Below, in pieces: positions 5,491 through 57,650 of a stretch of 61,672 nt of DNA. Below the pieces are notes generated by a model. The model was not told where the DNA came from, ran no database searches, and saw only the letters and a program-made list of their open reading frames with translations. Source of the DNA: a virus; IMG/VR virus record IMGVR_UViG_3300028027_000003, one strand, 5' to 3'. The translations under genes were made by a program, and so were the position numbers. How positions within the stretch are numbered: the stretch's first letter is position 1; the number at the start of each line of letters is the position of its first letter.

Positions 5491-5659
5491 CTACCTTTAC
5501 GTTAGGAGAACCTAACTCTTGTAGTTCTTCAGCCATACCTAAAACGAGGTCATTATACGAATTAATTTGTTCTTCTAGCTCTTGAATACGATTACTCATT
5601 ATCCAATTATATACACCCAGAATTATAATTAATCCTGACAGCAATAAAATATCTACCAT
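5474..5659 (-). CDS. Small membrane protein
   Basis: N-terminal hydrophobic helix ILLLSGLIIILGVYNWI; tiled with neighbours. Confidence 0.5.
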   Translation of the reverse strand: MVDILLLSGLIIILGVYNWIMSNRIQELEEQINSYNDLVLGMAEELQELGSPNVKVVEREK

Positions 5660-6120
5660 TGTAGTCCTGTTCTAGCCAACCATTCTTTAGAGGCTAATTT
5701 AGTTGTTGAGTATTCTTCATTGACTAAAACGTTATTAGCTTTTAAGAATTCAATACCATCTTTACATTTATATTCATCAATATAAACTAATCGTTTGATA
5801 CCTACTTCACTAATAAGCTTTGCACAATCAATACAAGGGCTAAGGGTACAGTAGATAGTAGCATTATCACTAGATAAGGTTGACTTAGCCAACTTAGCAA
5901 TAGCTTGAGCTTCAGCATGTAAAACCATTGATTTAGTTTTACCATCATCTGTTTGAGTTTCATTGTCCCATCCTCTAGGTGTTCCATTATAAGAGAAAGA
6001 AATGATGTTATCATTCTTTACAATGACAGCACCTACTTTACGATCTTTAGCATAGCTTTGTTGCGCTACTAACTGGGCTACCTTCAGATAAAACTGATCC
6101 CAATCTGTCTGGGTTTTCAT
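5653..6120 (-). CDS. dCMP deaminase (ComEB/Cd-like zinc deaminase)
   Basis: HAEAQAI and PCIDCAKLI zinc-binding/catalytic motifs; ~155 aa size typical of the family. Confidence 0.85.
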   Translation of the reverse strand: MKTQTDWDQFYLKVAQLVAQQSYAKDRKVGAVIVKNDNIISFSYNGTPRGWDNETQTDDGKTKSMVLHAEAQAIAKLAKSTLSSDNATIYCTLSPCIDCAKLISEVGIKRLVYIDEYKCKDGIEFLKANNVLVNEEYSTTKLASKEWLARTGLQW

Positions 6121-6265
6121 ATTGTATTACTAGCTCCTGTAGTTTTTTACATACTTCAGTTAGATGCCATAGCTCTGTTTGATCTTTAGGCGGTCTAACC
6201 ATAAACAAAATAGTTACAATATCACCATGGTCTTCAATTAGCATATTGCTTATCCCATAGATCAT
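6047..6265 (-). CDS. Doubtful small ORF bridging the MazG-like and deaminase genes
   Basis: ORF track only; overlaps the deaminase N-terminus by 74 nt; would otherwise leave a 113-nt gap. Confidence 0.25.
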   Translation of the reverse strand: MIYGISNMLIEDHGDIVTILFMVRPPKDQTELWHLTEVCKKLQELVIQYENPDRLGSVLSEGSPVSSATKLC

Positions 6266-6509
6266 AGTTTTTATATTTCTTTTCGTATGCTTCTGTTACC
6301 TTTTCTCTGTCTAACTTCCAATCATTAGCCATTAGTTGCATCATAGCTAATAGCTGACCAACTTCTTCTTCAAGATGAGCCTTGTTAGTTATGTTTGTAA
6401 CAGGAGACATATGATCTATACCAAAACGAAGTGCTTTAGATATAGCTTGAATCACTTCAGCACATTCTTCTTGTGTGATACGTGCGATTAAATTATTCTT
6501 CAATGACAT
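6234..6509 (-). CDS. MazG-like all-alpha NTP pyrophosphohydrolase
   Basis: ITQEECAEVIQAISKALRFG and HLEEEVGQLLAMMQLM resemble the EExxE/helix pattern of MazG-type enzymes; likely start MSLKNN at 6509. Confidence 0.55.
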   Translation of the reverse strand: MSLKNNLIARITQEECAEVIQAISKALRFGIDHMSPVTNITNKAHLEEEVGQLLAMMQLMANDWKLDREKVTEAYEKKYKNYDLWDKQYAN

Positions 6510-6642
6510 CGATTTCCACCACGTTATATGTTTCGTTAGTATTAAGGGTTTCACCTATCATATAATCAATAGCATTTCGAATTGTATCTTCTTCGTGTTC
6601 ACCATCAAACTCGATGACAACTGTTGCGATTGTTTTTTTCAT
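6493..6642 (-). CDS. Small acidic hypothetical protein (49 aa, below cutoff)
   Basis: Hand translation MKKTIATVVIEFDGEHEEDTIRNAIDYMIGE...; first ORF downstream of the promoter at 6651-6672. Confidence 0.4.
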   Translation of the reverse strand: MKKTIATVVIEFDGEHEEDTIRNAIDYMIGETLNTNETYNVVEIDVIEE

Positions 6643-6650
6643 TTTGCACA

Positions 6651-6672
6651 CTCCTATTAGGGGACAACTGCG
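6651..6672 (-). promoter_or_regulatory. Phage RNAP promoter candidate (CCCCTAATAG family)
   Basis: Minus strand reads CGCAGTTGTCCCCTAATAGGAG; intergenic between 6675..6932 and 6493..6642. Confidence 0.65.
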
Positions 6673-9818: not shown

Positions 9819-9983
9819 TTAGTTTCTTTTGAATTGGATTAGTATGTTTGGTTTATTTGTTAGTAATACACTTATTAGATACAAAGATAAGCCTAACACT
9901 AATGTGTATAAGATATAGAACCAGAAACTTGCTACACACGCAATAAATATTGCTGTTAGCATTAAGTTTATGAAGTTACTCAC
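9819..9983 (-). CDS. Small two-helix membrane protein (54 aa, GTG start, below cutoff)
   Basis: Hand translation SNFINLMLTAIFIACVASFWFYILYTLVLGLSLYLISVLL; GTGA overlap with the upstream stop. Confidence 0.35.
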   Translation of the reverse strand: MSNFINLMLTAIFIACVASFWFYILYTLVLGLSLYLISVLLTNKPNILIQFKRN

Positions 9984-10390
9984 AAATATTCCTCGATAAT
10001 AGTTTTACAAGCTTTATCTACAGTTGAACGCCATTCAGTGACAAGGGACTCAAAGAATGGATGGATAGTTGAGGCATCTGCTTTGAATGCAACAACAGGT
10101 TTACGTAGTACATAAGAAGCATAGAATACTTCCATAGCTGTACCATGTTTAGCGATTGTTGGATTATCAAGATTGACAAGGATAATGTCAGATTCTTGGA
10201 TGTCACGTAGGTCTAACTCAAAGATACGTTTCATGTATCGTTGTTCGAAGTTATGGATACGTCTGCATGGGTTAAGGGTTTTGACATCAGCAAAGTTTAG
10301 GATAGCTTCTGCTGATGTACGCCAACCGATAGCATCTTCTTTAGATACATGTTCCATTGGACCAGCTAAATAGATTGTTCTTTGTTTCAT
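9980..10390 (-). CDS. Nucleoside 2-deoxyribosyltransferase-like protein
   Basis: TIYLAGPM near the N-terminus plus GTAMEVFYA, typical of the NDT/Rcl fold; likely start MKQRTIYLAGPM at 10390. Confidence 0.55.
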   Translation of the reverse strand: MKQRTIYLAGPMEHVSKEDAIGWRTSAEAILNFADVKTLNPCRRIHNFEQRYMKRIFELDLRDIQESDIILVNLDNPTIAKHGTAMEVFYASYVLRKPVVAFKADASTIHPFFESLVTEWRSTVDKACKTIIEEYL

Positions 10391-10692
10391 AGTTCTTGAA
10401 GGATAGTTAGTTTGTTTGCTGTATACCACAATCCACCTTGATTAGCTGGACGCATATGTTCTGTGTAGTCATCGATAATAACTAGACACCATACACGATC
10501 TTTCTTTGATAGATGTGGCGCATCAGGTGCTGCACAACAGTGCCACCCTGGGCGATGAGCATAACCTTTTGTTTTGTGATCTTCTGCTGTGTATGTTATA
10601 CCTTGTTCAAGCTTTTGTTTACGGTTAATAAAGAGTGGTCCATATGTACCATCTTTACGTTTACGAAAGAGTTTATAGGCTATTACTGTCAT
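10387..10692 (-). CDS. Hypothetical protein
   Basis: ORF track; tiled. Confidence 0.55.
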   Translation of the reverse strand: MTVIAYKLFRKRKDGTYGPLFINRKQKLEQGITYTAEDHKTKGYAHRPGWHCCAAPDAPHLSKKDRVWCLVIIDDYTEHMRPANQGGLWYTANKLTILQEL

Positions 10693-14164: not shown

Positions 14165-14186
14165 AAGAGTAGTCCCCTAATAGAGA
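14165..14186 (+). promoter_or_regulatory. Phage RNAP promoter candidate (CCCCTAATAG family)
   Basis: AAGAGTAGTCCCCTAATAGAGA, identical 22-mer to the one at 18551-18572; about 50 nt upstream of 14236 with SD aaggagag. Confidence 0.7.
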
Positions 14187-14235
14187 TAGCGTAGTTATCA
14201 CTACTCTATAGGAGACATTATATGAAGGAGAGATT

Positions 14236-14616
14236 ATGCCTAGAAGCATACACCCAAATTCATTAGCTAATTTGAAGGTTATTACGTCTGAGACTGCAAG
14301 AGCTGCTCAATTAAAGAGTGCTGCATCAAAGTCATTAAACCACAAAATGGCTGAAGAATTTAAGATTTCAGCTAAAGCTTTTCAGAAAGCTCTAGTAGAT
14401 TTACCACAAGTATCATCATTAGATGTACTTAGAATGGCAATGTTCAAAGCCCTTCAAGAAGATAACTTTGAAGATGCAGCAAGATACGCTAATATGATAG
14501 CAGAGTATGAGAATCCTAAGCTAGCTCGGATTGAACAGACTAATACTAACAAGACAGTGGATCTTACTGATGAAGAACTTAAGAAGATTATCTCTGAAGA
14601 AGGTCTTCAAGAATAG
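14236..14616 (+). CDS. Lone plus-strand gene inside the minus arm; possible DNA-binding / small-terminase-like protein
   Basis: Own promoter, strong SD and own terminator; N-terminal HPNSLANLK motif that I associate with small phage DNA-binding/TerS-like proteins (memory only). Confidence 0.6.
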   Translation: MPRSIHPNSLANLKVITSETARAAQLKSAASKSLNHKMAEEFKISAKAFQKALVDLPQVSSLDVLRMAMFKALQEDNFEDAARYANMIAEYENPKLARIEQTNTNKTVDLTDEELKKIISEEGLQE

Positions 14617-14670: not shown

Positions 14671-14730
14671 TTTATCTTTAATTAAGTTCTTTTATCAATA
14701 ATATACTTTAAATAATATATTAAAGATGAA
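14671..14730. other. Very AT-rich tract downstream of a minus-strand phage promoter (candidate replication origin)
   Basis: tttatctttaattaagttcttttatcaataatatactttaaataatatattaaagatgaa; the arrangement resembles the T7 primary origin (promoter plus AT-rich segment). Confidence 0.3.
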
Positions 14731-14753
14731 CTCCCTATTAGGGGACAACTAAA
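14731..14753 (-). promoter_or_regulatory. Phage RNAP promoter candidate (CCCCTAATAG family)
   Basis: Minus strand reads TTTAGTTGTCCCCTAATAGGGAG; fires toward the AT-rich tract, antisense to 14236..14616, and on to the SSB gene. Confidence 0.65.
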
Positions 14754-14935: not shown

Positions 14936-15241
14936 TTAAGTACTCCATTCTATAGATTTGATATTTACTGACTTGATAGCAGACATACATATAGCACATG
15001 GTTTAGCATACATTTGTCTGCCTTCTTTGTTTGTTCTGATAACGAGCATTTTGTATGCTTTTGATATATCAGAACATTTCACAATAGCTGAAACTTCAGC
15101 ATGTAAAAAGATTCTCTCAGGCATATTCTGTTTCTTTGCATGTAATGCCTGAAAAGGATGTGTCTTGGTATAACTGTTTTTACCTATACTTAAGATCTTT
15201 CCTTTCTTGTCATAGATTATTGCTGTTAGGTTTTGTTCCAT
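14936..15241 (-). CDS. Minimal cytidine/deoxycytidylate-deaminase-fold protein (101 aa)
   Basis: HAEVSAI and PCAICMSAI zinc motifs; second deaminase-fold gene in the genome. Confidence 0.65.
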   Translation of the reverse strand: MEQNLTAIIYDKKGKILSIGKNSYTKTHPFQALHAKKQNMPERIFLHAEVSAIVKCSDISKAYKMLVIRTNKEGRQMYAKPCAICMSAIKSVNIKSIEWST

Positions 15242-17302: not shown

Positions 17303-17593
17303 TTATGCTTCAACTACTTCATTGAACCATACATTACCATCCCATCCTTGTGTGACACCGAAGTGTACCTTCTTACCTACCAATGCACGAGCAGTCTTAT
17401 ATTCCTTACGAGCATGGTCTACATCACGAGTGATGGACATCTTACGGATAACTTGTTGGTCATCCACTGCATACCAGTAACGGTTCTCTTTGTCTACAAA
17501 GACTGCCATCAAGACAGATGGATGAGCTGTGTAAGCTGTTGTGGTTGTGTCGCCCTTGATTGCAAAGGCTGGTTTGATTGCTTGGGTTTCCAT
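17303..17593 (-). CDS. Hypothetical early protein
   Basis: ORF track; preceded by a conserved element. Confidence 0.55.
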   Translation of the reverse strand: METQAIKPAFAIKGDTTTTAYTAHPSVLMAVFVDKENRYWYAVDDQQVIRKMSITRDVDHARKEYKTARALVGKKVHFGVTQGWDGNVWFNEVVEA

Positions 17594-17674: not shown

Positions 17675-17782
17675 TTAGTACGTTACTACCTCATAGTACT
17701 GTGGATCGTACTCATTGAGGATAGTTACTGATGATGTCTTGCACATCAATACTCGAGTGAGTCTATGATAGACGTAATACAT
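17675..17782 (-). CDS. Very small ORF (35 aa, below cutoff)
   Basis: Hand translation MYYVYHRLTRVLMCKTSSVTILNEYDPQYYEVVTY; TAATG overlap and AAGGAG SD embedded in the upstream gene. Confidence 0.35.
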   Translation of the reverse strand: MYYVYHRLTRVLMCKTSSVTILNEYDPQYYEVVTY

Positions 17783-17979
17783 TATAATACTCCTTCGTTG
17801 TGTTTGTCTTCAATGTTACGGATGAGATCAATTGCTTGCATACCAGCTAAGACAGCAGATGCGATCAGGATAACAATAACAAGGATAGCATTGTTGTCAT
17901 GTGTGTAGATCTGATCAACAGACCAAGAGGCAGCAGAGTACCACATCAAAGCGGTAAGGACGTTGAGGATTGTGTACAT
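17782..17979 (-). CDS. First early gene: small two-helix membrane protein
   Basis: ORF track; hydrophobic segments LNVLTALMWYSAASW and AILVIVILIASAVLAGM; SD aaggag upstream. Confidence 0.55.
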   Translation of the reverse strand: MYTILNVLTALMWYSAASWSVDQIYTHDNNAILVIVILIASAVLAGMQAIDLIRNIEDKHNEGVL

Positions 17980-18007
17980 GTTAATCTCCTTGAGTTATGT
18001 ACTAACA

Positions 18008-18046
18008 AGAGCAAGATCGCTCTCCATTGGGTTGTTACACCCAATA
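18008..18046 (-). promoter_or_regulatory. Two adjacent hairpins upstream of the first early gene
   Basis: agagc-aagatc-gctct (18008-18025) and attgggt-tgttac-acccaat (18027-18046), read directly. Confidence 0.4.
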
Positions 18047-18056
18047 GGCAGAGATC

Positions 18057-18521
18057 TTAGGCACGAATAGCAACCAACAGTGCCTCAAGAGCAGCAGCAC
18101 GAGAGTTGTCACCATTAACCTTCCAGTCAGCAACAAACTTAGAGTTGCATTCATCGTCCTCCTCAAAAGCCAAAGACACAATGGCAGGCCACACAGCAGC
18201 AACAACAGGCGGCAAAGCAAAGTCAACAAACGCCTGACCAGACCCGTAAGAACAGACAGACACAGACAAAGCACCGTCCAACGCAACCTCCGACAAGAAC
18301 CGAACAGCAGCGCCAAAGGAAGGAGCAAACGAAGACAGAGACACAGAGACAACAGGAGAAGAAGAAGAAAAAGAGACCACGGAACACCTCCAAGAGAGAA
18401 GACAGGGCAACAGCGCCCAACGAGACCCGACCAGCAGCACGACACCCCAGCACGAGACAGGGGGGTCACACGACACAGAAGGGGGAGAACAAACAAACAC
18501 ATGATTCTTTTTCACACACAA
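18057..18521 (-). CDS. Questionable ORF running through the A-free (minus strand) block
   Basis: TTG start, no SD; the C-terminal 37 codons (18057-18170) have normal composition and NNT-rich codons like the capsid gene; the rest is open only because no stop can form. Confidence 0.2.
   Translation of the reverse strand: MCVKKNHVFVCSPPSVSCDPPVSCWGVVLLVGSRWALLPCLLSWRCSVVSFSSSSPVVSVSLSSFAPSFGAAVRFLSEVALDGALSVSVCSYGSGQAFVDFALPPVVAAVWPAIVSLAFEEDDECNSKFVADWKVNGDNSRAAALEALLVAIRA
18170..18500. other. Extreme strand-asymmetric block: plus strand almost devoid of T
   Basis: My count is 8 T in 331 nt; T-free runs at 18290-18388 and 18390-18465; A>C>G; sits between the divergent arms. Confidence 0.9.
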
Positions 18522-18550
18522 AGACTAAGGGGGTTATAGAAAAAATAACA

Positions 18551-18572
18551 AAGAGTAGTCCCCTAATAGAGA
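18551..18572 (+). promoter_or_regulatory. Phage RNAP promoter candidate driving the late/structural arm
   Basis: AAGAGTAGTCCCCTAATAGAGA, 18 nt upstream of the TerL ATG. Confidence 0.7.
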
Positions 18573-18589
18573 AACTATAACGAAAGCAT

Positions 18590-20230
18590 ATGTCTAACAT
18601 CTCAAACACCCGCAAGCTAGAGGCTTTAAGGGAACTAAAGCGAAGAGAAAAACTCGCAGAATACCAAAATAACTTTGAACTCTTTGCGAAAGAGCAGATA
18701 AAGATTCTACCCAAAGACTCCCGACTAGGATTCCAACCCTTTCTCTTTAATGACGCCCAGAAGATTGTTAATGATGCGATCGAGGGGCAACTAAAGGAAA
18801 CGGGCAAAGTCAGGGCTATTATTTTAAAAGCCCGTCAGATGGGTCTTTCTACATATACTACTGGTAGAGTATTCTGGAAGTCTTATTTCAATGCTTTTAA
18901 CAAGTCAGTTGTCATGGCTCATGATGCTGCAACCTCAGACGCTCTCTTTACTATGTCCAGGAATATTATTTCTAATATGCCTGAGCAGTTCTCACCCACA
19001 TTAAAGCGGTCTAATGCAAAAGAGATTATGTTTGAACATAATGATTCTGGTTATAGATTGTATACAGCTGGTTCTCCTGAGGCAGGTAGGGGTATTACAC
19101 CAACAATCGCACATCTTTCAGAAGTTTCTTTCTGGCTCCATGATGAAAAGATTTTAGCGGGATTATTCCAGGGGATCTCCCAAGCAGATGGTACAGAGGT
19201 TATTCTCGAGAGTACGGCTAATGGGGTAGGTAACTCTTTTCATAGGTTATGGACAGATGCTGTAGCAGGTAAAAATGAGTATGTTCCTATATTCGTACCT
19301 TGGTTCCTTATGTCTGAATACCAGAGGAAGACACCTGAGGGGTTTGAGAGGACAGATGAGGAAGAGTTACTTGTTACAAGGTTTAGCTTAACTGATGAAC
19401 AGTTATACTGGAGAAGATTAAAGATTGCTGAGAGTGGTATTGATAAATTCAAACAAGAATACCCAGCTACTCCTGAAGAAGCCTTTATTGTATCTGGCTC
19501 TAATGTATTTAATATTGAAAAGTTAAATAGGTTAATACCACAACCAATCCTAGCTCAAAGAGAATTTAACTTTGAGAGTATGATGATGGAGGATGCCCGA
19601 CAGGGGTCTATTGAAATATTTAAGTATCCTTCTTTTGATCAATCTTTTGTTATAGCTGCTGATGTATCCTTAGGGGTAGGCAAAGATCATTCTGCCGCAG
19701 TAGTTATGAATGCAGAAAAAGAAGTATGTGCCACGTATAGAAATAATATGATTGATCCCAGTAAGTTTGGGGATCTATTGTTTTATTTAGGTAGGTACTA
19801 TAATAATGCTTTAATGGCTGTAGAGTCAAATAGTATGGGTATTGCTACTCTGAATAGACTAGTTCAGATGGGTTATGTCAATATGTACTATCAGACTAAG
19901 ATGGCTAATGTATCTAAGGAAGAGGGTATGCGGATGGGTTGGAGAACAACAACATCATCTAAACCAGCTATCATTGGATTTCTTAAGAGTGCTATTGAAC
20001 AAGAGGAAATATGGATACCTTCAAGGACTATTATTGGGGAGTTAATGAATTATGTGGCTGATGACAATGGTAGGACAAATGCTATTGTTGGTCACAATGA
20101 TGATACCGTTATCGCTCTTGCTATTGCTCTCGAAGTAATAAGGACACACGGAGATAAACTAACAACAACTAATGTACCCTTCACACAGAAGATGGGTTCA
20201 TTCCAACAAATAGAAACAACATGGTTGTAA
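18590..20230 (+). CDS. terL: Terminase large subunit
   Basis: ATPase-like ILKARQMGLSTY segment, C-terminal RNaseH-like nuclease acidic motifs (IAADVSLGVGKDHSAAVVM, VESNSMG, GHNDDTV); first gene of the structural arm. Confidence 0.8.
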   Translation: MSNISNTRKLEALRELKRREKLAEYQNNFELFAKEQIKILPKDSRLGFQPFLFNDAQKIVNDAIEGQLKETGKVRAIILKARQMGLSTYTTGRVFWKSYFNAFNKSVVMAHDAATSDALFTMSRNIISNMPEQFSPTLKRSNAKEIMFEHNDSGYRLYTAGSPEAGRGITPTIAHLSEVSFWLHDEKILAGLFQGISQADGTEVILESTANGVGNSFHRLWTDAVAGKNEYVPIFVPWFLMSEYQRKTPEGFERTDEEELLVTRFSLTDEQLYWRRLKIAESGIDKFKQEYPATPEEAFIVSGSNVFNIEKLNRLIPQPILAQREFNFESMMMEDARQGSIEIFKYPSFDQSFVIAADVSLGVGKDHSAAVVMNAEKEVCATYRNNMIDPSKFGDLLFYLGRYYNNALMAVESNSMGIATLNRLVQMGYVNMYYQTKMANVSKEEGMRMGWRTTTSSKPAIIGFLKSAIEQEEIWIPSRTIIGELMNYVADDNGRTNAIVGHNDDTVIALAIALEVIRTHGDKLTTTNVPFTQKMGSFQQIETTWL

Positions 20231-27627: not shown

Positions 27628-29334
27628 ATGGGATACCAACAACAACCTGGAATGACTGGTAGTATTTCTGCTGGTGGTGAATACGATAATTTAGATAACG
27701 TAACATCAGTACAATATACTAATTTGGCCGCAGAAGATGCTGCTGCAGCCGCATTAAGTGCTGAAGAAGCTGCTGCCTCTGCATTAGCTGCTGCTGGTTC
27801 TGCTAGTAGTGCGTCTACCAGTGCAGGTACCGCTACTACTCAAGCGGGTATAGCTACAACACAAGCAGGAATTGCCACTACACAGGCAGGTATTGCGACT
27901 ACTCAAGCGGGTAATGCCGCTACTAGTGCAAGTACTGCTACTACACAAGCTGGAATAGCTACTACACAGGCAGGTATAGCAACTACTCAAGCTGGGATAG
28001 CTACTACTCAAGCGGGTATTGCAACTACTCAAGCAAGTAATGCAGCCACATCAGCCGCAGACGCATTAACTTCTCAAACTGCTGCTGCGGCATCTGCTGC
28101 ACAAGCATTAGCTGCATTTGATAACTTTGATGACAAATATCTTGGTGAAAAGAATGCTGACCCCACAGTAGATAATGATGGTAATCCCCTCCAAACAGGT
28201 GCATTATACTTTAATACAGTAACTAACACCATGAAGGTGTATTCTGGTACTATCTGGATAGAGGCTTATGCTGATGGAGCATCATTCCTTGCAAAAGCAA
28301 ATAATTTATCAGACTTAAATAACGTAGCTACTGCACGTACTAATCTTGGATTAGGTACAGCAGCAACAACTAATAGTACAGATTATGCTACTGCTGCCCA
28401 AGGTGCTAAAGCAGATACAGCGTTACAAACAATTACTTCTGTTGATGGTAGTGTGACTATTGCTACAACAGGTACTACAAGCGATTTAAGTGTTGCTGTT
28501 GCTGCCGCTTCTACAAACGTTATTGCTCAAGTACGTAATACAACTGGAGCAACATTAACTAAAGGAACTGCAGTATATATCTCAGGTGCTACAGGTCAAT
28601 TACCTACAGTATCTAAAGCATTAGCTACATCTGATGCTACTTCAGCTCAAACACTAGGTTTAATAACTGCTGACCTAGCTAATAATTCTAACGGTTATGT
28701 TACTGTTATTGGTTTAATTACTAATATTAACACATCAGCTTATACAGATGGTGAACAATTATATTTAAGTTCTACAACTGCAGGAACATTAACAGCTACT
28801 AAGCCTTATGCACCTCAACATCTTGTTTATGTAGCTGTTGTTGAACATGCACATGCAACTCAAGGTAAGTTGTTTGTTAAAGTACAAAACGGTTACGAAA
28901 TGGATGAGCTACATGATGTGTCTGCTCAGAACCCTACTAATGGTCAAGTATTAATCTATAATGAAACAACTTCATTATGGGAAAAACATACATTAACTGA
29001 TGGTACTGGTATTAATATTACTGAGGGTGCTGGTTCTATTACCGTTAATTTAGCATCTAACTATGGTGATACATTAAACCCTTATGATTCTAAAACAGCT
29101 AACTATGTATTAGCAGCACCTAATGGGACAGCTGGAGTACCTACATTCAGGGCTATTAATGCAGCTGATATTCCAACATTAAATCAGAATACAACAGGTA
29201 CTGCTAATAACGTGACAGGTATTGTGGCGTTAGCTAATGGTGGTACAGGCGCAGACAATGTAGCTTCTGCTCAAACAAATCTTCAAGTCGATCCAGCAGG
29301 AACTGCAGTAGCTTTAGCGATTGCTCTTGGTTAA
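27628..29334 (+). CDS. Tail fibre protein with heptad tandem repeats
   Basis: ATTQAGI repeated about 9 times; NLSDLNNVATARTNLGLG and GGTGA..AQTNLQV fibre-type motifs. Confidence 0.7.
   Translation: MGYQQQPGMTGSISAGGEYDNLDNVTSVQYTNLAAEDAAAAALSAEEAAASALAAAGSASSASTSAGTATTQAGIATTQAGIATTQAGIATTQAGNAATSASTATTQAGIATTQAGIATTQAGIATTQAGIATTQASNAATSAADALTSQTAAAASAAQALAAFDNFDDKYLGEKNADPTVDNDGNPLQTGALYFNTVTNTMKVYSGTIWIEAYADGASFLAKANNLSDLNNVATARTNLGLGTAATTNSTDYATAAQGAKADTALQTITSVDGSVTIATTGTTSDLSVAVAAASTNVIAQVRNTTGATLTKGTAVYISGATGQLPTVSKALATSDATSAQTLGLITADLANNSNGYVTVIGLITNINTSAYTDGEQLYLSSTTAGTLTATKPYAPQHLVYVAVVEHAHATQGKLFVKVQNGYEMDELHDVSAQNPTNGQVLIYNETTSLWEKHTLTDGTGINITEGAGSITVNLASNYGDTLNPYDSKTANYVLAAPNGTAGVPTFRAINAADIPTLNQNTTGTANNVTGIVALANGGTGADNVASAQTNLQVDPAGTAVALAIALG
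27832..28062 (+). repeat. About eleven tandem 21-nt (7-codon) repeat units inside the fibre gene
   Basis: Units gct act act caa gcg ggt ata etc.; read directly. Confidence 0.9.
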
Positions 29335-29683: not shown

Positions 29684-30877
29684 ATGTCATATATTGGTAG
29701 TACTCCTACTCAACAATCATTTGTTCCTTCATTAGATTATTTTAGTGGTAATGGATCAACTGTAGCATTTACATTATCTAGACCAGTAGCCTCTGTTGCT
29801 CAAGTACAAGTTAATATTTCTAATGTAGCACAGAATCCAAGCAGTGCATACTCAGTTAATGGTAATGTTATTACGTTCACCTCTGCTCCACCAAGCGGTA
29901 CAAACAACATCTATGTGTACTACACCAGCCCGATTACTCAGGTGATTGCACCGGGGCAGGGAACGGTTACATCAGAGAGCTTTGGAACTATCACCAACTT
30001 CACCACCACAGGCAACACTGTCCTTGGTGACGCATCTACTGACACACTGAATGTCGGTAATGGAGGCTTGGTCAAGGATGCCAGCGGTAATGTGGGTATT
30101 GGTACTGCTTCGCCAGCTTATAAATTACAAGCAAATGCTGGCGGTTCAAACAACAACAATGACGCAAATACTATTGTAGCCACAGGAACGAACCACGTTC
30201 GATTGAAGGTGCACACGCCAACTACGGGCGGGTTTCGAGCGTCTTTGGTTCTTTCGTCTGACGAGGCCGTTACAGCAACGGGCAACGAGGTCAGCATTTC
30301 CACAACTGGCTCTGATGAAATGCAGTTTGCTACTGGCGGCTCAGAACGTGCCCGTATCGACTCCAGCGGTAACTTGCTGGTGGGGACTACGAGTAATGGA
30401 CGAACTGACTCAAACGGAACTGCGATTGACCCAACTGGTGTTGTTTACCAAAATCATATAACTGGTACAGCTTCAGGAAGTTTTTACACCCGTTTTTCTC
30501 TTGCAGGCACTCAAATTGGCTCTATTTCTCAGAGTGGAACTACTGCTGTTGCATATACCACATCATCCGACTACCGCTTAAAGAATACTATCGCCCCAAT
30601 GACAGGAGCACTGGCGAAGGTTCAACAACTCAAGCCAGTCACATATAAGTGGAACGCTGACGGCTCAGACAGCCAAGGCTTTATTGCACATGAATTACAA
30701 GAAGTAGTACCGGATTGTGTGCATGGGGAAAAAGACGCAGTGGACGCTGATGGCAATCCGCAGTATCAAGGCATCGACACCAGCTTCTTGGTTGCCACAC
30801 TGACAGCCGCAATCCAAGAACAACAAGCCCTCATCACCACCCTAACTAACCGCATCACAGCACTGGAGAATAAATAA
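29684..30877 (+). CDS. Tail fibre/spike with C-terminal intramolecular chaperone (peptidase S74-like) domain
   Basis: TSSDYRLKNTIAPMTGALAKVQQLKPVTYKWN..GFIAHELQEVVPDCV..QGIDTSFLVATLTAAIQEQ; N-terminus MSYIGSTPT paralogous to 31980 gene. Confidence 0.75.
   Translation: MSYIGSTPTQQSFVPSLDYFSGNGSTVAFTLSRPVASVAQVQVNISNVAQNPSSAYSVNGNVITFTSAPPSGTNNIYVYYTSPITQVIAPGQGTVTSESFGTITNFTTTGNTVLGDASTDTLNVGNGGLVKDASGNVGIGTASPAYKLQANAGGSNNNNDANTIVATGTNHVRLKVHTPTTGGFRASLVLSSDEAVTATGNEVSISTTGSDEMQFATGGSERARIDSSGNLLVGTTSNGRTDSNGTAIDPTGVVYQNHITGTASGSFYTRFSLAGTQIGSISQSGTTAVAYTTSSDYRLKNTIAPMTGALAKVQQLKPVTYKWNADGSDSQGFIAHELQEVVPDCVHGEKDAVDADGNPQYQGIDTSFLVATLTAAIQEQQALITTLTNRITALENK
30363..30395 (+). repeat. 33-nt segment identical to 33010..33042
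   Basis: ccagcggtaacttgctggtggggactacgagta read in both fibre genes. Confidence 0.85.
30767..30819 (+). repeat. 53-nt segment identical to 33385..33437
   Basis: caaggcatcgacaccagcttcttggttgccacactgacagccgcaatccaaga read in both fibre genes. Confidence 0.85.
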
Positions 30878-31983
30878 TGCCAATCAGTACTATTAACTCA
30901 GCGGGGTTGACAAGCCCTTTAACGGGTGCGGCTATAACCTCCACAGGCGGTGGTTCTGTTGCCACCAACACTGCGTTTGGTTCAAGTGCTTTGGCTTCTA
31001 ACACGACAGGTGCTGGGAATGTCGCTATCGGCTATCAAGCTGTGGCTACCAGCACAACAGGCAATTACAACGCCGCAGTTGGTCAACAGGCCATGCAAAA
31101 CGGAGATGGCGCAACAGGAAATGCCGCTTTGGGATACCAAGCGCTCAGAGCAAGTACAGGAACATACAACACAGGTATTGGGTTTGCTACTGGCCAATCC
31201 ATTACATCTGGCAACTACAATACTGCAATTGGAAGTCAAGCGCTCAACAGTAACACCACAGCCTCCAACAACACTGCTGTAGGTTATCAGGCGGGGTATA
31301 GCAATACCACAAGCATTGAAAGCACTTACATCGGCCATGTTGCGGGCTATTCCACTACAGGTGCTAGCAATACATTTATCGGACAAGGCGCTGGCTACTC
31401 TGTAACCTCTGGTGCAAAAAACACCATTCTTGGCAAATTCACAGGCAACTCAGGCGGCTTAAACATCACTACAGCAAGCAACTACATCGTGCTGTCTGAT
31501 GGGGATGGAAATCCAAGGGGTCAGTTTAACAATGGTACTGCGTTTGCTTTGCAAGGTGCTGGAAATGCCGCAAATCCATACATAACTAGTTTTGATTCTT
31601 CTCTTTATGCCTATGGAAGGATTGCATCTAGTTCGGGCGTTTACCTTGCAAATAACGCAACAAGCTGGGCAAGCACTTCTGACGAACGCCGTAAAGACAT
31701 CATTGAACCAATTACAAACGCCACAGAAAAACTTTTAACACTGCGGACGGTGATTGGAAAATTTAAAGTTGATGAAGATGGAACACGCAGACCATTCTTG
31801 ATTGCCCAAGACGTGCTGGCTGTTTTCCCAGAGGCTGTAAACCATCAAGAAGACGAAGATGGTGAATTTTTGGGTATGTCTTATACGGACATGATTCCAC
31901 TGCTTGTAGCCGCAATCAAAGAACTCAAAGCAGACCTTGACGCAACAAAAGCAGAACTTGCCGCATTGAAAGGTACATTATGA
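30877..31983 (+). CDS. Fibre/adhesin-like protein with NTA(I/V)G repeats and divergent S74-like C-terminus
   Basis: Repeated N-T-A-I/V-G-x-x-A units (YadA-head/Hep_Hag-like), C-terminal TSDERRKDIIEPI..FLIAQDVLAVFPEAV..LLVAAIKELK. Confidence 0.65.
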   Translation: MPISTINSAGLTSPLTGAAITSTGGGSVATNTAFGSSALASNTTGAGNVAIGYQAVATSTTGNYNAAVGQQAMQNGDGATGNAALGYQALRASTGTYNTGIGFATGQSITSGNYNTAIGSQALNSNTTASNNTAVGYQAGYSNTTSIESTYIGHVAGYSTTGASNTFIGQGAGYSVTSGAKNTILGKFTGNSGGLNITTASNYIVLSDGDGNPRGQFNNGTAFALQGAGNAANPYITSFDSSLYAYGRIASSSGVYLANNATSWASTSDERRKDIIEPITNATEKLLTLRTVIGKFKVDEDGTRRPFLIAQDVLAVFPEAVNHQEDEDGEFLGMSYTDMIPLLVAAIKELKADLDATKAELAALKGTL

Positions 31984-33518
31984 GCTATATAGGTAATACA
32001 CCTACAACAGCAGCCTTTCTAACTGATCAATTCAGTGGGAATGGCTCAACCACTACATATACAATGTCAGTGGCTCCTGCCACTACATCCTCTATTATTG
32101 TGGCTATTACAGGGGTAGTACAAGACCCCTCAACATATTCTGTTAATGGTACATCATTAACATTTTCAGCAGCACCTCCAGCAGGAACAGGTAATATTTC
32201 TATACGTTATCTTGGTATCCCTGCTTCAGGTGTAGCTACTACTGCATACAGAACTATTACCGATAGTACAGCTACTGCAGGACAAACAACGTTTACTATT
32301 CCATCATATACTGTAGGATATTTAAATGTATATCGTAATGGAGTAAGATTAGCTACGGCAGACTATACTGCAAGTAACGGTACATCTGTTGTATTAACTA
32401 ATAGTGCGTCTGCTGGTGACACTATCACTACTGAGTCGTTCTATGTGTCTTCCGTGTTGAATGCTTTCCCAACAACAGGCGGGACACTCAGCGGTCAGTT
32501 GGCAGTCAACAGTGCCACAGGACAGAAGCCCTTGATCGCACAGGTCAACGGTACTGAGGTGTTTGAAGTTGATGCAAGTGGGCGAGTTGGTATAGCCACT
32601 TCGTCTCCACAAAACCTGCTGAACATCGTCAAGGACTCAGCCAACTCGTCTGCGGCGGCCAATGCTGGCGTTGCCATCCAGTCTGATTCTGGTGCAACCT
32701 ATACCGCAGGATTGCATTTTGGTACAGATAAAACAGGCGTTCTTTCCTATATCCAGTCTGATAGCTCGGCGTCGTACTCAGCAGTGCCTCTTGTGATTAA
32801 CCCACTTGGCGGTAATGTGGGGATTGGTACGAGTTCGCCAAGTTACAAGTTGGATGTGTCTGGAGCTATAAGTTGGTTGCCGGGAGTTACAGGCGCTCCA
32901 AGAGGTTATATGAGCGGCGCAAGTGCAGACCAATCTGTTGAGATTGGCACAAATACAAATAGTCCTCTTGGGTTTGCAACCAATGCTATAAGAAGGATGG
33001 CTATCGACACCAGCGGTAACTTGCTGGTGGGGACTACGAGTACAGATAGTGGAAGAATGTGTGTTGAAGCCCAAACAAATGGATATGCTATTTCATTCCG
33101 CAGAAACACAGGTGTTTATGGTTCAAACACAAAAGTCGGTCAAATTTCTTGTGATTCATCATCTACTGTATACACCACATCATCTGATTATCGTCTAAAA
33201 GAAAATATTGCACCTATGACAGGTGCTTTGAATAAAGTTACTCAGCTTAAACCTGTGACATATACATGGAAAGAGTCTGGAGAAGCAACGCAAGGTTTTA
33301 TTGCCCACGAACTTCAAGCTGTCGTGCCTGATGCTGTTGTTGGTGAAAAAGACGCAGTAGACGCTGAAGGCAATCCTGTCTACCAAGGCATCGACACCAG
33401 CTTCTTGGTTGCCACACTGACAGCCGCAATCCAAGAGATGAAGACAATCATCGACACCCAAGCCAGCACCATCACTCAATTACAGGCAGACGTAGCCGCA
33501 TTGAAAGGAACAGCATGA
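31980..33518 (+). CDS. Tail fibre/spike with C-terminal S74-like chaperone domain (paralogue of 29684..30877)
   Basis: MSYIGNTPT N-terminal anchor, TSSDYRLKENIAPMTGALNKVTQLKPVTYTWK..GFIAHELQAVVPDAV. Confidence 0.75.
   Translation: MSYIGNTPTTAAFLTDQFSGNGSTTTYTMSVAPATTSSIIVAITGVVQDPSTYSVNGTSLTFSAAPPAGTGNISIRYLGIPASGVATTAYRTITDSTATAGQTTFTIPSYTVGYLNVYRNGVRLATADYTASNGTSVVLTNSASAGDTITTESFYVSSVLNAFPTTGGTLSGQLAVNSATGQKPLIAQVNGTEVFEVDASGRVGIATSSPQNLLNIVKDSANSSAAANAGVAIQSDSGATYTAGLHFGTDKTGVLSYIQSDSSASYSAVPLVINPLGGNVGIGTSSPSYKLDVSGAISWLPGVTGAPRGYMSGASADQSVEIGTNTNSPLGFATNAIRRMAIDTSGNLLVGTTSTDSGRMCVEAQTNGYAISFRRNTGVYGSNTKVGQISCDSSSTVYTTSSDYRLKENIAPMTGALNKVTQLKPVTYTWKESGEATQGFIAHELQAVVPDAVVGEKDAVDAEGNPVYQGIDTSFLVATLTAAIQEMKTIIDTQASTITQLQADVAALKGTA
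33010..33042 (+). repeat. 33-nt segment identical to 30363..30395
   Basis: Read directly. Confidence 0.85.
33385..33437 (+). repeat. 53-nt segment identical to 30767..30819
   Basis: Read directly. Confidence 0.85.
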
Positions 33519-37279: not shown

Positions 37280-37300
37280 ACAGACGACCCCTAATAGAGA
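37280..37300 (+). promoter_or_regulatory. Phage RNAP promoter candidate
   Basis: ACAGACGACCCCTAATAGAGA directly after the endolysin stop; near-identical to the minus-strand copy at 56916-56937. Confidence 0.65.
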
Positions 37301-37330
37301 AAGACTCCTTTGAAAAGAAAAGCCAAACAA

Positions 37331-56839: not shown

Positions 56840-56912
56840 TGGGTACTCGGTAATGGATTTAAACCATTATCTCTCAATTAATCGTTGATTGCTTTACTTA
56901 AGCTAACCGAGC
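56840..56912 (-). tRNA. Degenerate tRNA-like element (cloverleaf folds, non-canonical loops)
   Basis: Acceptor GCTCGGT/ACCGAGT, T arm AATGG-TTTAAAT-CCATT, anticodon loop CGATTAA with G33; anticodon assignment unreliable. Confidence 0.35.
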
Positions 56913-56915
56913 TTG

Positions 56916-56937
56916 TTCTCTATTAGGGGACGTCTGT
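56916..56937 (-). promoter_or_regulatory. Phage RNAP promoter candidate driving the tRNA/ncRNA array
   Basis: Minus strand reads ACAGACGTCCCCTAATAGAGAA; overlaps the thioredoxin stop codon. Confidence 0.65.
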
Positions 56938-57192
56938 ACTTGTAATAAAAATATCTAACTCCTGTAATGAAATAGAACCATTAATCTTTCTGATCATATT
57001 ATCATTGTCATCGGTCAATACAAACGTAGGTACAGTCTTGATACCGTATAGTGCAGCCTTATCTGGATCTTTATGAGCATTAATATTATTTAATACAACA
57101 CCATAGTCCAACATAAAGTCTACGTCTTTAATTCGTTCTGACATTTGTTTACAAGGAACACAAGTGTCAGTATAAAATTTATATAAGTTCAT
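56923..57192 (-). CDS. Thioredoxin-like protein
   Basis: CVPC active site in FYTDTCVPCKQM and cis-Pro motif KTVPTFVL. Confidence 0.8.
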   Translation of the reverse strand: MNLYKFYTDTCVPCKQMSERIKDVDFMLDYGVVLNNINAHKDPDKAALYGIKTVPTFVLTDDNDNMIRKINGSISLQELDIFITSTDVP

Positions 57193-57607
57193 TTTTTGTT
57201 GGTATTAAAAACCATTCTCCATTTGTTTTATATTCTGAAAATATTTCATGATATGTAGATTCCATATAGCCTTCATTAATACCTTCATACAACACATGTA
57301 AAGGATAAGGATTAGACACTTCTAAATTTTTTAATCTGTCTGCTAAATTATCTGTAGAACCTATTTTAACATATTCTCCACAACCAATCATATACAAATG
57401 ATTTTTTGATTGAGCATCTAAACCTTTACGTCCATTAATTCTAGTAGCACAAGATTTACATTGAGTAGATTTACCTGTTCTTAAGTTAGAATCTTTTACA
57501 ATACCCTCTTTACCGCAATCACAAATACACTTGTACTTTGAATTATAATTCTTTGTTTTAGAATCAAATTCAAGTACAAGCCACTTATTAAACCTCTGAC
57601 CAATCAT
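57179..57607 (-). CDS. Homing-endonuclease-like protein (N-terminal Cys-rich DNA-binding region plus T5orf172/GIY-YIG-like domain)
   Basis: CICDCG..CKSC then HLYMIGCGEYVKIGSTDNLADRLKNLEVSNPYPL..GEWF; the ORF track start (57694) overlaps RNR, ATG MIGQRF at 57607 has AGGAGG. Confidence 0.65.
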   Translation of the reverse strand: MIGQRFNKWLVLEFDSKTKNYNSKYKCICDCGKEGIVKDSNLRTGKSTQCKSCATRINGRKGLDAQSKNHLYMIGCGEYVKIGSTDNLADRLKNLEVSNPYPLHVLYEGINEGYMESTYHEIFSEYKTNGEWFLIPTKNELI

Positions 57608-57617
57608 AATAGTTACC

Positions 57618-57639
57618 CTCCTATTAGGGGCCAACTGGC
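57618..57639 (-). promoter_or_regulatory. Phage RNAP promoter candidate
   Basis: Minus strand reads GCCAGTTGGCCCCTAATAGGAG, its 3' AGGAGG doubling as the SD of 57607 gene. Confidence 0.6.
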
Positions 57640-57650
57640 CAGTAGTTGAG

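Follow-up and report, generated by a model that had tools for sequence, protein, structure and literature searches.

The DNA analysed here is a 61,672-nt stretch of viral sequence (IMG/VR record IMGVR_UViG_3300028027_000003; "the window" below means this whole stretch), in which a block with very little thymine on one strand lies at the divergence of the early and late arms. The features in and around this block are as follows.

17303..17593, minus strand: small early gene of an OB-fold family, of ordinary composition; copies inside the zone in relatives are recoded without A.
17782..17979, minus strand: next early gene, which has an AAGGAG and ATG of its own; the product is a hydrophobic protein of 65 aa.
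18008..18058, minus strand: 3' boundary element, a long covarying stem-loop plus an invariant small hairpin, GAGC-GATCTT-GCTC.
18057..18380, minus strand: first early ORF, GTG start at 18380, 107 codons plus stop.
18164..18501: adenine-excluded zone; the minus strand is sense (about 2% A) and the plus strand is the T-poor template; it covers the leader and the first two-thirds of the first ORF.
18381..18501, minus strand: untranslated leader of 121 nt (T47, G38, C34, A2).
18387..18391, minus strand: Shine-Dalgarno GGAGG, 6 nt 5' of the GTG start; TTGGAGGTG is enriched and conserved across relatives.
18405..18418, minus strand: leader hairpin GGGCGCTGTTGCCC of terminator-like form, with a U-rich tract after it.
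18502..18525, minus strand: conserved element GTCTTTGTGTGTGAAAAAGAATCA, bordering the zone on its upstream side and occurring once in the window.
18556..18575, plus strand: phage-type promoter-like motif TAGTCCCCTAATAGAGAAAC facing TerL (18590-20230), the divergent partner of the early operon.

Composition and coding strand of the block

Over the 331 nt from 18170 to 18500 the plus strand holds 142 A, 98 C, 83 G and 8 T, the T count being that of an earlier description made from the letters alone (the sequence-only reading), and the two long T-free runs reported there, 18290-18388 (99 nt) and 18390-18465 (76 nt), were recovered at the same coordinates. Two shorter T-free runs occupy 18183-18222 (40 nt) and 18467-18501 (35 nt), and the longest elsewhere in the window is 31 nt. 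A 331-nt stretch contains 103 ± 17 T on average, each of the other bases occurs at least 30 times in every such stretch of the whole window, and with T at 31%, about 6e−12 T-free runs of 99 nt would be expected per 61.7 kb. The same description had given the local GC as far above that of the genome (0.51-0.555 in the block and 0.376 in the window), had noted three overlapping minus-strand ORFs (18035-18502, 18057-18521 and 18223-18453), and had placed the block between the first early gene (minus-strand ATG at 17979) and a promoter 5' of TerL (the promoter-like motif at 18556-18575), all of which we found to be correct. The motif GCAGCACGA, said to occur three times, has two exact copies, the third site reading only CAGCACGA.

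We are highly confident that the T-poor block serves as template for the start of a minus-strand early operon, a stretch that comprises a leader and then the first ORF, that ends near a covarying hairpin beyond which the next early gene begins, and in which selection acts at the nucleotide level. A conserved GGAGG, 6 nt of spacing and an in-frame GTG on the minus strand bear out the suggestion of an A-free minus-sense transcript, and the further suggestion of a genuine A-avoiding gene gained support from the residual As of the sense-strand ORF, which are spaced by multiples of three, and from distant homologues of the first ORF in relatives L064, L067 and L069. The idea of a plus-sense, U-free RNA that binds Hfq- or Crc-type proteins did not survive: all evidence of coding and of signals comes from the minus strand, Rfam 15 returned only tRNAs at gathering thresholds across the window and nothing at E ≤ 1 in 17900-18620, and the folding energy did not differ from that of shuffled sequences (z about −0.65 on both strands). 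The plus strand was rejected as the functional strand altogether, since the Shine-Dalgarno sequence, start codon, codon phase and conserved protein termini and domains all belong to the minus strand.

Codons 1-66 of the first ORF have 0, 5 and 0 As at codon positions 1, 2 and 3, respectively, and the last 41 codons are of ordinary composition. A is absent at 49 third positions of four-fold families (P ~10^−8.8 given the amino-acid sequence and the codon usage of the genome). Proteins encoded in the zone consist almost wholly of F, L, S, C, W, P, R, V, A and G; no functional match for them came from Pfam, PHROGs, tblastn or AlphaFold, they show no resemblance to known anti-restriction proteins, including Ocr, and the single-sequence AlphaFold model of the first-ORF protein was uninformative (pLDDT 44). 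This amino-acid repertoire might point to a cause in translation or in the proteins themselves, such as a need for first proteins without Lys, Asn, Ile, Thr and the like, the use of tRNAs without anticodon U (escape from anticodon nucleases), or the impossibility of stops in all frames, and the tRNAs of the phage (Arg-TCT, Tyr-GTA and Met) do cover A-containing codons. Such a cause is very hard to credit, however, because the untranslated leader is the strictest A-free part, A is missing from third positions even where the amino acid would be unaffected, and codons for Asp, Glu and Tyr do appear where they are needed. That the non-coding leader is equally A-free means that protein composition cannot be the cause, a point overlooked in the sequence-only reading.

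One of the two As of the leader sits inside the Shine-Dalgarno GGAGG, and the alignment of relatives shows an invariant CCCCC run together with the conserved TTGGAGGTG. The element at its upstream edge is found in about 70 of 80 related loci with conserved alignment columns; its TTAG.TCTTTGT portion also occurs in Roseobacter phage CRP-7, and weak TCTTT...AAAGA pairing is possible within 18502-18525. The element is probably part of the early promoter or of the transcript 5' end. A search upstream of the zone for the sigma-70 consensus gave no good match in the window or in CRP-7, TAG..T-type candidates being visible by eye only, and in CRP-7 the last A before the zone falls in a possible −10 sequence, TAGGTT. 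The pairing of the leader hairpin is kept in L070 and L075 as GGAC...GTCC and has an analogue in CRP-7 (GGGGGCTCCCCCC plus TCTTTCTT), and this hairpin may serve as an attenuator; the leader as a whole has no conserved global fold (RNAalifold, −1.3 kcal/mol).

The stem at the downstream boundary is formed by a 20-nt inverted repeat (18013-18032 / 18039-18058) that is conserved in relatives, with compensatory changes in 8 of its 13 predicted pairs; in form it is like an RNase III site or a stabiliser of 3' ends, and it may have a role in processing. The 65-aa gene beyond it is of ordinary composition and conserved in the clade, with no Pfam or PHROG match for its protein, and the protein encoded at 17303-17593 was modelled by AlphaFold with a pLDDT of 86 and gave weak Foldseek matches to OB folds. 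On the other side of the block, the core of the promoter-like motif, CCCCTAATAG(A/G)GA, has about seven copies on both strands of the genome.

Distribution among relatives and the nature of the constraint

TerL of the window phage is 58% identical to that of CRP-7 and 81-97% identical to those of 80 IMG/VR loci, and the replication module and RNAP correspond between the window and CRP-7; the shared TerL and a genome architecture with T7-like RNAP place the phage among the CRP-7-type podoviruses. A depleted block is present in nearly all of the 80 related loci having upstream DNA. Homologous zones in 60 distinct relatives span 74-854 nt with 1-5% A, and the base shares of T, G and C rise from.31,.19 and.19 to.41,.29 and.27 in the zones, A thus being replaced about equally. 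The sequence-only reading had proposed asking whether relatives keep a depleted block at the homologous locus; these 60 relatives and CRP-7 do. The CRP-7 zone consists of A-free runs of 224, 168, 104 and 62 nt directly 5' of gp01, and five contigs of the CRP-7 clade also have a zone, whereas two more distant relatives lack an A-free leader: clade L129, whose TerL is about 60% identical to that of CRP-7, and MW202692, whose TerL shares 34% identity with that of the window. The GenBank annotation of the CRP-7 zone is on the wrong strand, and gp72, whose translation is of low complexity with K, E, R, Q, T and P only, is probably spurious.

Exclusion of A is strictest in the leader, which is also the one part that all relatives have; in L021 and L070 the zone is a leader of about 100 nt with no gene inside. 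The end of the zone differs from the hairpin in some genomes, including the window (18183 and 18058, respectively), L005, L013 and L026. In CRP-7, 3 kb and ten annotated genes (gp63-gp72) separate the zone from TerL, whereas in the clade of the window the two adjoin.

This last difference bears on whether the block might be a DNA structural element at a genome end, such as a terminal repeat, packaging site or replication origin with incidental ORFs, in which strand purity would serve the annealing of resected ends, terminase recognition, or R-loop or primase loading. Its position beside TerL, where the arms diverge in this clade, its highly variable length, the G-run repeats upstream of the zone in relatives and the intrinsic poverty of both strands in secondary structure would suit such an element. 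We nevertheless regard it as improbable: the CRP-7 zone lies far from TerL, the signs of translation are clear (Shine-Dalgarno sequence, start, codon-phase As, conserved protein termini and domains), the folding energy equals that of shuffles, no repeated or Chi-like motif was found apart from elements conserved by descent, and the recoding of protein domains would be left unexplained. The physical termini could not be taken from the contig ends, which are arbitrary, the 126-nt repeat at the ends of the window being an assembly overlap by the RNAP gene, about 18 kb from the block.

Selection acts on the nucleotide itself, sense-strand A being lost wherever it is dispensable. The As that are retained lie in GGAGG, in start and stop codons and as the middle base of Asp, Glu, Tyr and Gln codons. 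One domain family has 2-5% A when encoded in the zone and 25-31% in paralogues 1-2 kb downstream, both sometimes in one genome (L038 and L028), with K>R, I/M>V/L and T/N>S/A replacements in the in-zone copies. Since the same domain is A-poor in the zone and ordinary downstream, the constraint is on nucleotides and depends on position. The pressure against A peaks at the start of the operon and fades over 0.1-1.2 kb, with a gradual rise of A in many relatives, and the commonest contexts of the remaining As are GA and UA, with no motif-specific avoidance.

A mutational origin, in which strand- or position-specific hypermutation aimed at A (a DGR-like A-to-N process or another linked to transcription) left only the selected As, would account for the roughly equal replacement of A by T, G and C, as A-to-N would give, and for the gradient with distance. 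The position of the zone 5' of a conserved hairpin also recalls diversity-generating retroelements, in which the variable region lies 5' of the IMH and a hairpin and adenine is the sole affected base. However, the tract here is A-less and not variable at A positions, the scan of about 56 ORFs against Pfam or PHROGs turned up no reverse transcriptase, no template-repeat-like second copy of the zone exists (best blastn E 0.18 over 26 nt), and leaders are well conserved among close relatives and not hypervariable. A DGR was rejected for want of a reverse transcriptase and a template repeat, and we hold a mutational origin in general to be quite improbable.

Genome entry and host attack as possible causes of the exclusion of A

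The window encodes a T7-like single-subunit RNAP (PF00940, 2e−56), a gp2.5-like SSB, a primase-helicase (Toprim-DnaB), PolA and a 5'-3' exonuclease. The sequence-only reading had assumed an N4-like layout, which these T7-type proteins contradict. N4-like phages package a giant virion RNAP of about 3500 aa and have hairpin early promoters near terminal repeats, and divergent early and late arms are what the window shares with them; neither profile searches nor PDB sequence searches detected a giant virion RNAP, the largest ORF (1412 aa) having no match. Three large virion ORFs gave no PHROG or significant PDB sequence match and did not reveal the ejection type; the six matches that a PDB search with one of them returned, at E 0.11-0.81, were to chains of T-cell receptors and Bem1, which are unrelated.

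Phages of the T7 type inject the early-promoter end of the genome first, and transcription then reels in the rest. Our preferred reading, held tentatively, is that the zone serves as a leading segment free of targets, which gets past host nucleases before any counter-defence has been made. A duplex with one T-less strand can contain no palindrome that includes A or T. Sites needing adenine on both strands, as in type I and most type II systems, are impossible in such a duplex, as are head-to-head pairs of asymmetric type III sites with A but no T (EcoP15I CAGCAG, EcoP1 AGACC), and the GC-only palindromes that could still occur are purged as well. If the early-promoter end of this phage likewise enters first and entry is coupled to transcription, the segment and its first gene or genes would survive host nucleases, the presumed selective agent, and be expressed before the later-entering DNA is exposed, and the early products may protect the rest of the genome.

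The restriction-proof leader of the sequence-only reading has some support. Among the 16 GC-only tetramers, CCGG, GGCC and CGCG show the strongest depletion in the zones, at 0.12, 0.17 and 0.19 of Markov-1 expectation, and 6-mer GC palindromes occur there twice against 43-89 expected. CGCG and CCGG are also avoided throughout the window (2 against 22 and 4 against 31 expected) and CGCG in CRP-7 (1 against 28), so only GGCC, at 0.17 in zones and 0.66 genome-wide, is independent zone-specific evidence. Against the target-free segment, A/T-containing palindromes (GTAC and GGTATACC) are conserved in the leader, 60% of leader As fall in 4-mer palindromes, and As of the coding part avoid palindromes weakly (20% against 29% expected); in CRP-7, A and T occur on both strands just 5' of the promoter, in DNA that would enter earlier. 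The leader-only zones of L021 and L070 mean that a protected anti-defence gene cannot be the universal rationale. Site avoidance alone would also put a tiny cost on any single A, which fits poorly with amino-acid-changing recoding.

A cost per A would explain that recoding if the transcript were what is protected, an A-free early mRNA with its 5' element and 3' hairpin escaping adenine-dependent RNA targeting or modification while the first proteins are still made; candidate agents would be an abortive-infection or HEPN-type RNase, an RNA ADP-ribosyltransferase or the phage's own injected host-shutoff enzyme. The zone begins at the promoter, as the possible −10 sequence of CRP-7 suggests, it often ends at the covarying hairpin, the ribosome-free leader, strictest in A exclusion, is the sole part shared by every relative, and an in-zone paralogue beside a normal copy looks like an expressible backup. 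This explanation is unlikely in our judgement, as the zone does not always end at a hairpin, the depletion of GGCC is left unexplained and the GA and UA contexts of residual As show no motif-specific avoidance. RNase E-type sites are still possible in U-rich RNA, and a general bacterial RNase or modifier that is specific for single adenines and acts so early is not known to us. The nearest comparison is with ACA-less mRNAs, natural or in the single-protein-production system, which escape the MazF endoribonuclease: there too a coding sequence without the nuclease target stays expressible, but the target is a trinucleotide, whereas here it would be a mononucleotide for which no cognate A-specific nuclease is known.

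Protection might instead concern the template, if dU or a modified T in virion DNA were attacked by host glycosylases or nucleases; a T-less template would stay undamaged and transcribable, and damage confined to one strand would not lead to double-strand breaks. The T-free strand is indeed the template strand, the A gradient would fit protection that builds up during DNA entry, and a dCMP deaminase adjoins a MazG-like NTP pyrophosphohydrolase in a genome that also encodes a nucleoside deoxyribosyltransferase / N-hydrolase-like protein, with no thymidylate synthase or dUTPase detected among the ORFs scanned. This gene set would only permit base modification, however, and ordinary marine phages commonly carry a deaminase together with MazG. 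Standard metagenomes yielded more than 250 related contigs, and leader-only relatives have no protected gene, so that this explanation too has a low probability. CRP-7 was sequenced without reported difficulty (PMC6918029), whereas a dU-containing roseophage failed standard library preparation (PMC8323127). Points in common with U-DNA phages (PBS2 with Ugi; roseophages DSS3_VP1 and DSS3_PM1) are a roseophage context and a deaminase with a pyrophosphohydrolase but no thymidylate synthase, and cytosine deaminase and (pyro)phosphatase were proposed as a pair in the dU-containing roseophages (PMC8323127); the same paper reports no such composition block for U-DNA phages.

Several other candidates were rejected. 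A template proof against UV dimers does not agree with purine-flanked template Ts at 136 against 172 expected, a template that keeps 29% C and a sense strand enriched in G. A Z-genome (2-aminoadenine) is contradicted by an A-rich template strand and the lack of a PurZ-size ORF, and thymidine hypermodification via hmdU by the lack of a thymidylate-synthase-size ORF. ATP-independent transcription under ATP depletion was ruled out on principle, as translation and phage replication need ATP.

Relation to known systems and significance

The left end of T7, where an early operon transcribed by host RNAP has gene 0.3 (Ocr) first, resembles this locus in the accompanying RNAP, SSB, primase-helicase, PolA and exonuclease, in a first cistron with a long leader in front and a conserved stem-loop at its end (RNase III hairpins in T7), and in the proposed logic of expression before the remaining DNA is exposed. 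It differs in that the late genes here are on the opposite strand and the first genes vary, none being like Ocr; the T7 leader and gene 0.3 are of ordinary four-letter composition. Restriction-site avoidance in phages, including the one-orientation bias of EcoP15I sites in T7, has its likeness in the genome-wide lack of CGCG and CCGG and in the loss of GGCC and 6-mers in the zone, and a T-free strand likewise forces A-containing, T-less asymmetric sites into one orientation. Known site avoidance removes particular words, however, whereas here a whole nucleotide is missing from one strand over 0.1-0.85 kb with amino-acid changes, and some A/T-containing palindromes remain in the leader. A full-text literature search found no described counterpart, and both the CRP-7 paper and a 2025 roseophage paper citing CRP-7 are silent on the A-free zone; exclusion of one nucleotide from one strand across a leader and genes is apparently undescribed.

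The constraint is strong enough to rewrite proteins and has been kept across two sister clades of podoviruses abundant in marine and other environments. Exclusion of A must report on an event that meets the first infecting DNA or RNA, be it restriction, RNA targeting, base modification or genome entry, and with CRP-7 and its host in culture direct testing is possible. For annotation, such zones lead gene callers to the wrong strand, gp72 of CRP-7 being an example. An A-free sequence cannot hold stop codons and is in that respect a natural cradle for new ORFs.

If the restriction reading holds, the zone would represent an extreme, generic form of site avoidance and not a new mechanism. It is also possible, though we would not count on it, that the zone is a three-letter "safe" expression unit, with an A-less transcript and a T-less template, that works under base-specific attack in the first moments of infection, the attack being adenine-dependent RNA targeting or shutoff, or a glycosylase or nuclease acting on a T-substituted virion genome. 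Were this true, the exclusion of a whole nucleotide would be a new principle of counter-defence, and it would imply an unrecognised attack system specific for a single base in abundant aquatic bacteria or phages.

The T-poor block and the early operon

Base counts across 18170-18500 on the plus strand (A142 C98 G83 T8) bore out the ~330-nt T-poor block described in a sequence-only reading of this DNA, including its T-free runs of 99 and 76 nt and a local GC far above that of the genome (0.51-0.555 vs 0.376 window-wide). Outside the block, T-free runs in the window reached at most 31 nt, no base other than T dropped below 30 in any 331-nt window of a window-wide scan, and a 99-nt T-free run at 31% T is arithmetically expected ~6e-12 times per window. 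The three overlapping minus-strand ORFs pointed out by the same reading were present, a trivial consequence of composition because an A-less strand has no stop codons; GCAGCACGA, said to occur three times, was counted only twice. The minus strand is the sense strand of the block, and the following features were located.

18290-18388, plus: T-free run, 99 nt
18390-18465, plus: T-free run, 76 nt
18183-18222, plus: T-free run, 40 nt
18467-18501, plus: T-free run, 35 nt
18525-18502, minus: conserved element GTCTTTGTGTGTGAAAAAGAATCA, single copy in the window, found in ~70/80 related loci
18381-18501, minus: untranslated leader of 121 nt with only two As, at 18466 and 18389, the latter inside GGAGG
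18380 (GTG) to 18057, minus: first ORF, 107 codons, in frame, 6 nt past GGAGG
18008-18058, minus: boundary hairpins, an inverted repeat with 20-bp arms plus the invariant small hairpin GAGC-N6-GCTC
17979 (ATG), minus: next gene after the hairpins, preceded by AAGGAG, encoding a conserved 65-aa hydrophobic protein

The boundary inverted repeat and hairpin lay directly 3' of the first ORF, and compensatory changes were seen among relatives in 8 of the 13 predicted pairs of the stem. A occurred at positions 1/2/3 of ORF codons 1-66 in a 0/5/0 pattern, all five As being second bases that Glu, Asp, Tyr and Gln codons require. The lack of any third-position A in 49 four-fold-family codons had P ~10^-8.8, conditioned on the amino-acid sequence and on genome codon usage (four-fold families 17-44% A-ending), and the final 41 codons were of ordinary composition. 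Since the untranslated leader was at least as strictly A-less as the ORF, protein composition is not the cause, and translation-level or protein-level causes are extremely unlikely.

Assembly of the window was circular, at ~61.5 kb; an exact 126-nt repeat (1-126 and 61547-61672, adjoining the RNAP gene) reflects overlap of the assembled ends of a circular or concatemeric map and is no evidence for physical termini. That the block serves as a terminal repeat or origin is improbable. Minus-strand genes ran from ~18.5 kb downward, through the record origin, to 54.7 kb, beginning with small early ORFs, a gp2.5-like SSB, a MazG-like pyrophosphohydrolase and dCMP deaminase, continuing with PolA, a 5'-3' exonuclease and primase-helicase, and closing with a T7-like single-subunit RNAP (PF00940, 2e-56), class II RNR, tRNAs and a ferritin-like protein. 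The plus arm carried TerL (18590), portal, scaffold, capsid, tail fibres, PhoH and three large unknown proteins, ending at 54376. A promoter-like motif of ~15 nt, (G)TCCCCTAATAG(A/G)GA with core CCCCTAATAG(A/G)GA, stood before gene blocks in ~7 copies and probably serves as promoter for the single-subunit RNAP that the phage itself encodes.

6648-6670, 14170-14189, 14729-14751, 18556-18575, 37284-37303, 56917-56946 and 57615-57637, both strands: promoter-like motif copies

The copy at 18556-18575 faced TerL, and the early leader had no clean upstream copy, only CCCCCTTAGTCT. Gene order, RNAP and promoter-like motif therefore indicate a T7-RNAP-type podovirus layout rather than the N4-like one assumed earlier. 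The sole cultured relative, Roseobacter phage CRP-7 (TerL 58% identical), was presented by its authors as the first member of a new group, carrying a distant T7-like RNAP (PMC6918029). We conclude with high confidence that the block templates the A-excluded 5' part of a CRP-7-type podovirus early operon, comprising the leader and one or more first ORFs.

Further observations were made elsewhere in the window. The RNAP ORF (59574-61451, minus) encoded 625 aa from a TTG start, vs 819 aa in CRP-7, which may reflect a truncated, split or mis-started N-terminal domain. A 126-aa ORF (14236-14616, plus) lay inside the minus-strand early arm, directly 3' of the plus-oriented promoter-like copy at 14170, from which transcription would run antisense to early genes, toward the block. 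A 568-aa tail-fibre-like gene contained 9-10 tandem 21-nt (7-aa) repeats (27768-28061, plus). Neighbouring tail-fibre genes shared near-identical segments (30355-30819 and 33002-33436, plus; ≤98% over 41 nt, 84% over 146 nt), one at the 3' end of a 397-aa ORF (29684-30877) and the other in the C-terminal part of ORF 31980-33518, with a Peptidase_S74 chaperone domain, a pattern that suggests duplication or cassette exchange. A fifth tRNA-like sequence (56844-56912, minus; Rfam 47.7 bits), missed by ARAGORN, adjoined Arg-TCT, Tyr-GTA and two Met-CAT tRNAs.

Conservation and positional pressure

We collected 80 IMG/VR loci (L-numbers below) via TerL at 81-97% identity, and nearly all that include upstream DNA kept the depleted block at the same place, its T-free runs reaching 259 nt. 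Among 60 distinct sequences the A-excluded zone spanned 74-854 nt (median 250) at a steady composition (A 1-5%, T.41, G.29, C.27). Leaders retained a run of 5-6 Cs, local hairpins and TTGGAGGTG, and comparison of the relatives' leaders gave no conserved global fold. The cargo varied: the zones of L021 and L070 contained no gene, and other zones held small fully A-free hydrophobic ORFs, the window's own ORF type, a "type 1" protein of 117-149 aa or a "type 2" protein of 212-240 aa, the few As of longer zones being spaced at multiples of three. In five IMG/VR contigs of the CRP-7 clade, the equivalent position held T-free runs of 113-226 nt; the zone was absent from two more distant relatives, clade L129, whose TerL shares ~60% identity with that of CRP-7, and MW202692, whose TerL shares 34% identity with that of the window.

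Just upstream of the zone, the same strand was almost C-free and carried repeated G-runs in 3-4 copies of GGGGnAAnGTC-like units, mostly lost in the closest members of the window clade; candidate roles are as activator sites, as iterons or as DNA that forms a G-quadruplex.

L001 (CRP-7 record) ~733-795 (CRP-7 57312-57374), L021 5797-5997, and L027, L033, L070-L075 and L079, zone strand: C-poor G-run DNA

In CRP-7, A-free runs of 224, 168, 104 and 62 nt lay within 57384-58069 on the sense strand of gp01-gp32. Its A-free leader of 224 nt preceded an unannotated, SD-less ORF of ~128 aa (ATG 57608 to ~57993, MSSSFSFALPSV...), whose N- and C-termini matched the in-zone type 2 protein of L041, a member of the window clade; a hairpin, AAAGGAG and the gp01 ATG followed. 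GenBank gp72 (L001:141-836; MK613349.1 57271-57966, minus) lies on the opposite, T-free strand and translates into a K/E/R/Q/T/P-only sequence; it is probably spurious, and looks like a mis-annotation arising because T-free/A-free DNA has no stop codons there.

The type 1 domain (...GDRV.V.CSDGR.R.C...VD.V...L..RVG..V.F.....D.WF.) provided a natural experiment: in-zone copies contained 2-5% A (e.g. 0/11/1 by codon position) vs 25-31% in paralogues 1-2 kb downstream, both forms occurring within one genome in L038 and L028. In-zone copies showed K to R, I/M to V/L and T/N to S/A replacements; L018 and L048 were intermediate (~9% A). What matters is therefore position: the pressure targets the nucleotide itself, with enough strength to alter amino acids. 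It also weakened with distance; in many relatives (L005, L013, L015, L018 and L003) the number of As per 60 nt rose gradually over several hundred nt to a plateau, and in L040, L041, L078 and CRP-7 it rose stepwise. We hold with high confidence that position-dependent selection on the nucleotide maintains the A-excluded segment.

The window's ORF 17303-17593 (minus) falls in the ordinary-composition branch of the type 1 family, with a confident predicted structure (small OB fold, pLDDT 86) and weak structural matches to AB5 B-subunits, cold-shock/IF1/S1 domains and RPA. Its family of small early proteins (~90-130 aa), without a Pfam or PHROG match, was expanded, several copies per genome being possible.

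L015, L021, L023, L028, L038, L057 and L070-L075: paralogues of 17303-17593

Candidate causes of adenine exclusion

One T-free strand excludes all A/T-containing palindromes and all sites needing adenine on both strands. Of the 16 GC-only tetramers, none was more depleted in the zones than CCGG (10 vs 82 expected), GGCC (17 vs 100) and CGCG (15 vs 79), and 6-base GC palindromes there numbered 2 vs 43-89 expected. CGCG and CCGG were also avoided throughout the window (2 vs 22 and 4 vs 31 expected), as was CGCG in CRP-7 (1 vs 28), the remaining 4-mer palindromes being near expectation genome-wide; this restriction-avoidance signature hints at the hosts' RM repertoire. Only GGCC depletion was zone-specific (0.17 vs 0.66 genome-wide), and As left in coding parts avoided palindromes no more than mildly (20% vs 29% expected). 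It is possible, though far from assured, that a target-free leading DNA segment would escape host nucleases until early functions act, by analogy T7 logic pushed to an extreme. The palindrome purge, the A gradient with distance and the genomes' restriction signature favour such a segment; however, palindromes persist in the leader, where conserved hairpins hold GTAC or GGTATACC, promoter DNA is unprotected, and leader-only relatives exist.

Another candidate is an A-free mRNA bounded by a hairpin and resistant to some adenine-dependent activity that targets RNA. It would best account for the strictness of the leader, the cost attached to each base and the "backup" paralogue, but we know of no agent of the required kind, and this explanation is doubtful. 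Folding of either strand resembled that of shuffles (z ~-0.65), no Rfam family matched the zone, and no repeated motifs such as Chi were found.

The window also encodes a nucleotide-metabolism set.

5653-6120, 6234-6554, 9980-10429 and 14936-15241, minus: dCMP deaminase, adjacent MazG-like NTP pyrophosphohydrolase, nucleoside 2-deoxyribosyltransferase/N-hydrolase-like protein, second deaminase-like fragment

Neither thymidylate synthase nor dUTPase was detected among the ORFs scanned, and a similar deaminase and (pyro)phosphatase pair has been proposed for dU-containing roseophages (PMC8323127). The set is compatible with altered thymidine content, and the zone would then be a lesion-proof template in DNA that carries dU or modified T, but these phages are easily recovered from metagenomes, which argues against dU, and such a template is unlikely. 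A UV-proof template was unsupported by zone composition and the sequence context of the remaining As. The lost A was redistributed evenly to T, G and C, compatible with A-specific, DGR-like hypermutation and equally with selection; with no RT among the ORFs scanned and no template repeat in the genome, DGR-like mutagenesis was rejected and A-specific hypermutation is very unlikely.

Relation to known systems

The T7 leading-end early region with Ocr, restriction-site avoidance, ACA-less MazF-resistant mRNAs, DGR adenine mutagenesis and U-DNA phages each have one aspect in common with the zone. In none of them is a whole nucleotide missing from one strand along both leader and genes. Full-text literature searches aimed at such a feature, and roseophage papers including the CRP-7 paper (PMC6918029), yielded no description of it. 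We therefore regard the zone as new in kind as a sequence phenomenon; should the restriction model hold, it would rather amount to site avoidance of the known sort taken to an extreme. As CRP-7 and its host are in culture, the competing models are decidable by experiment.
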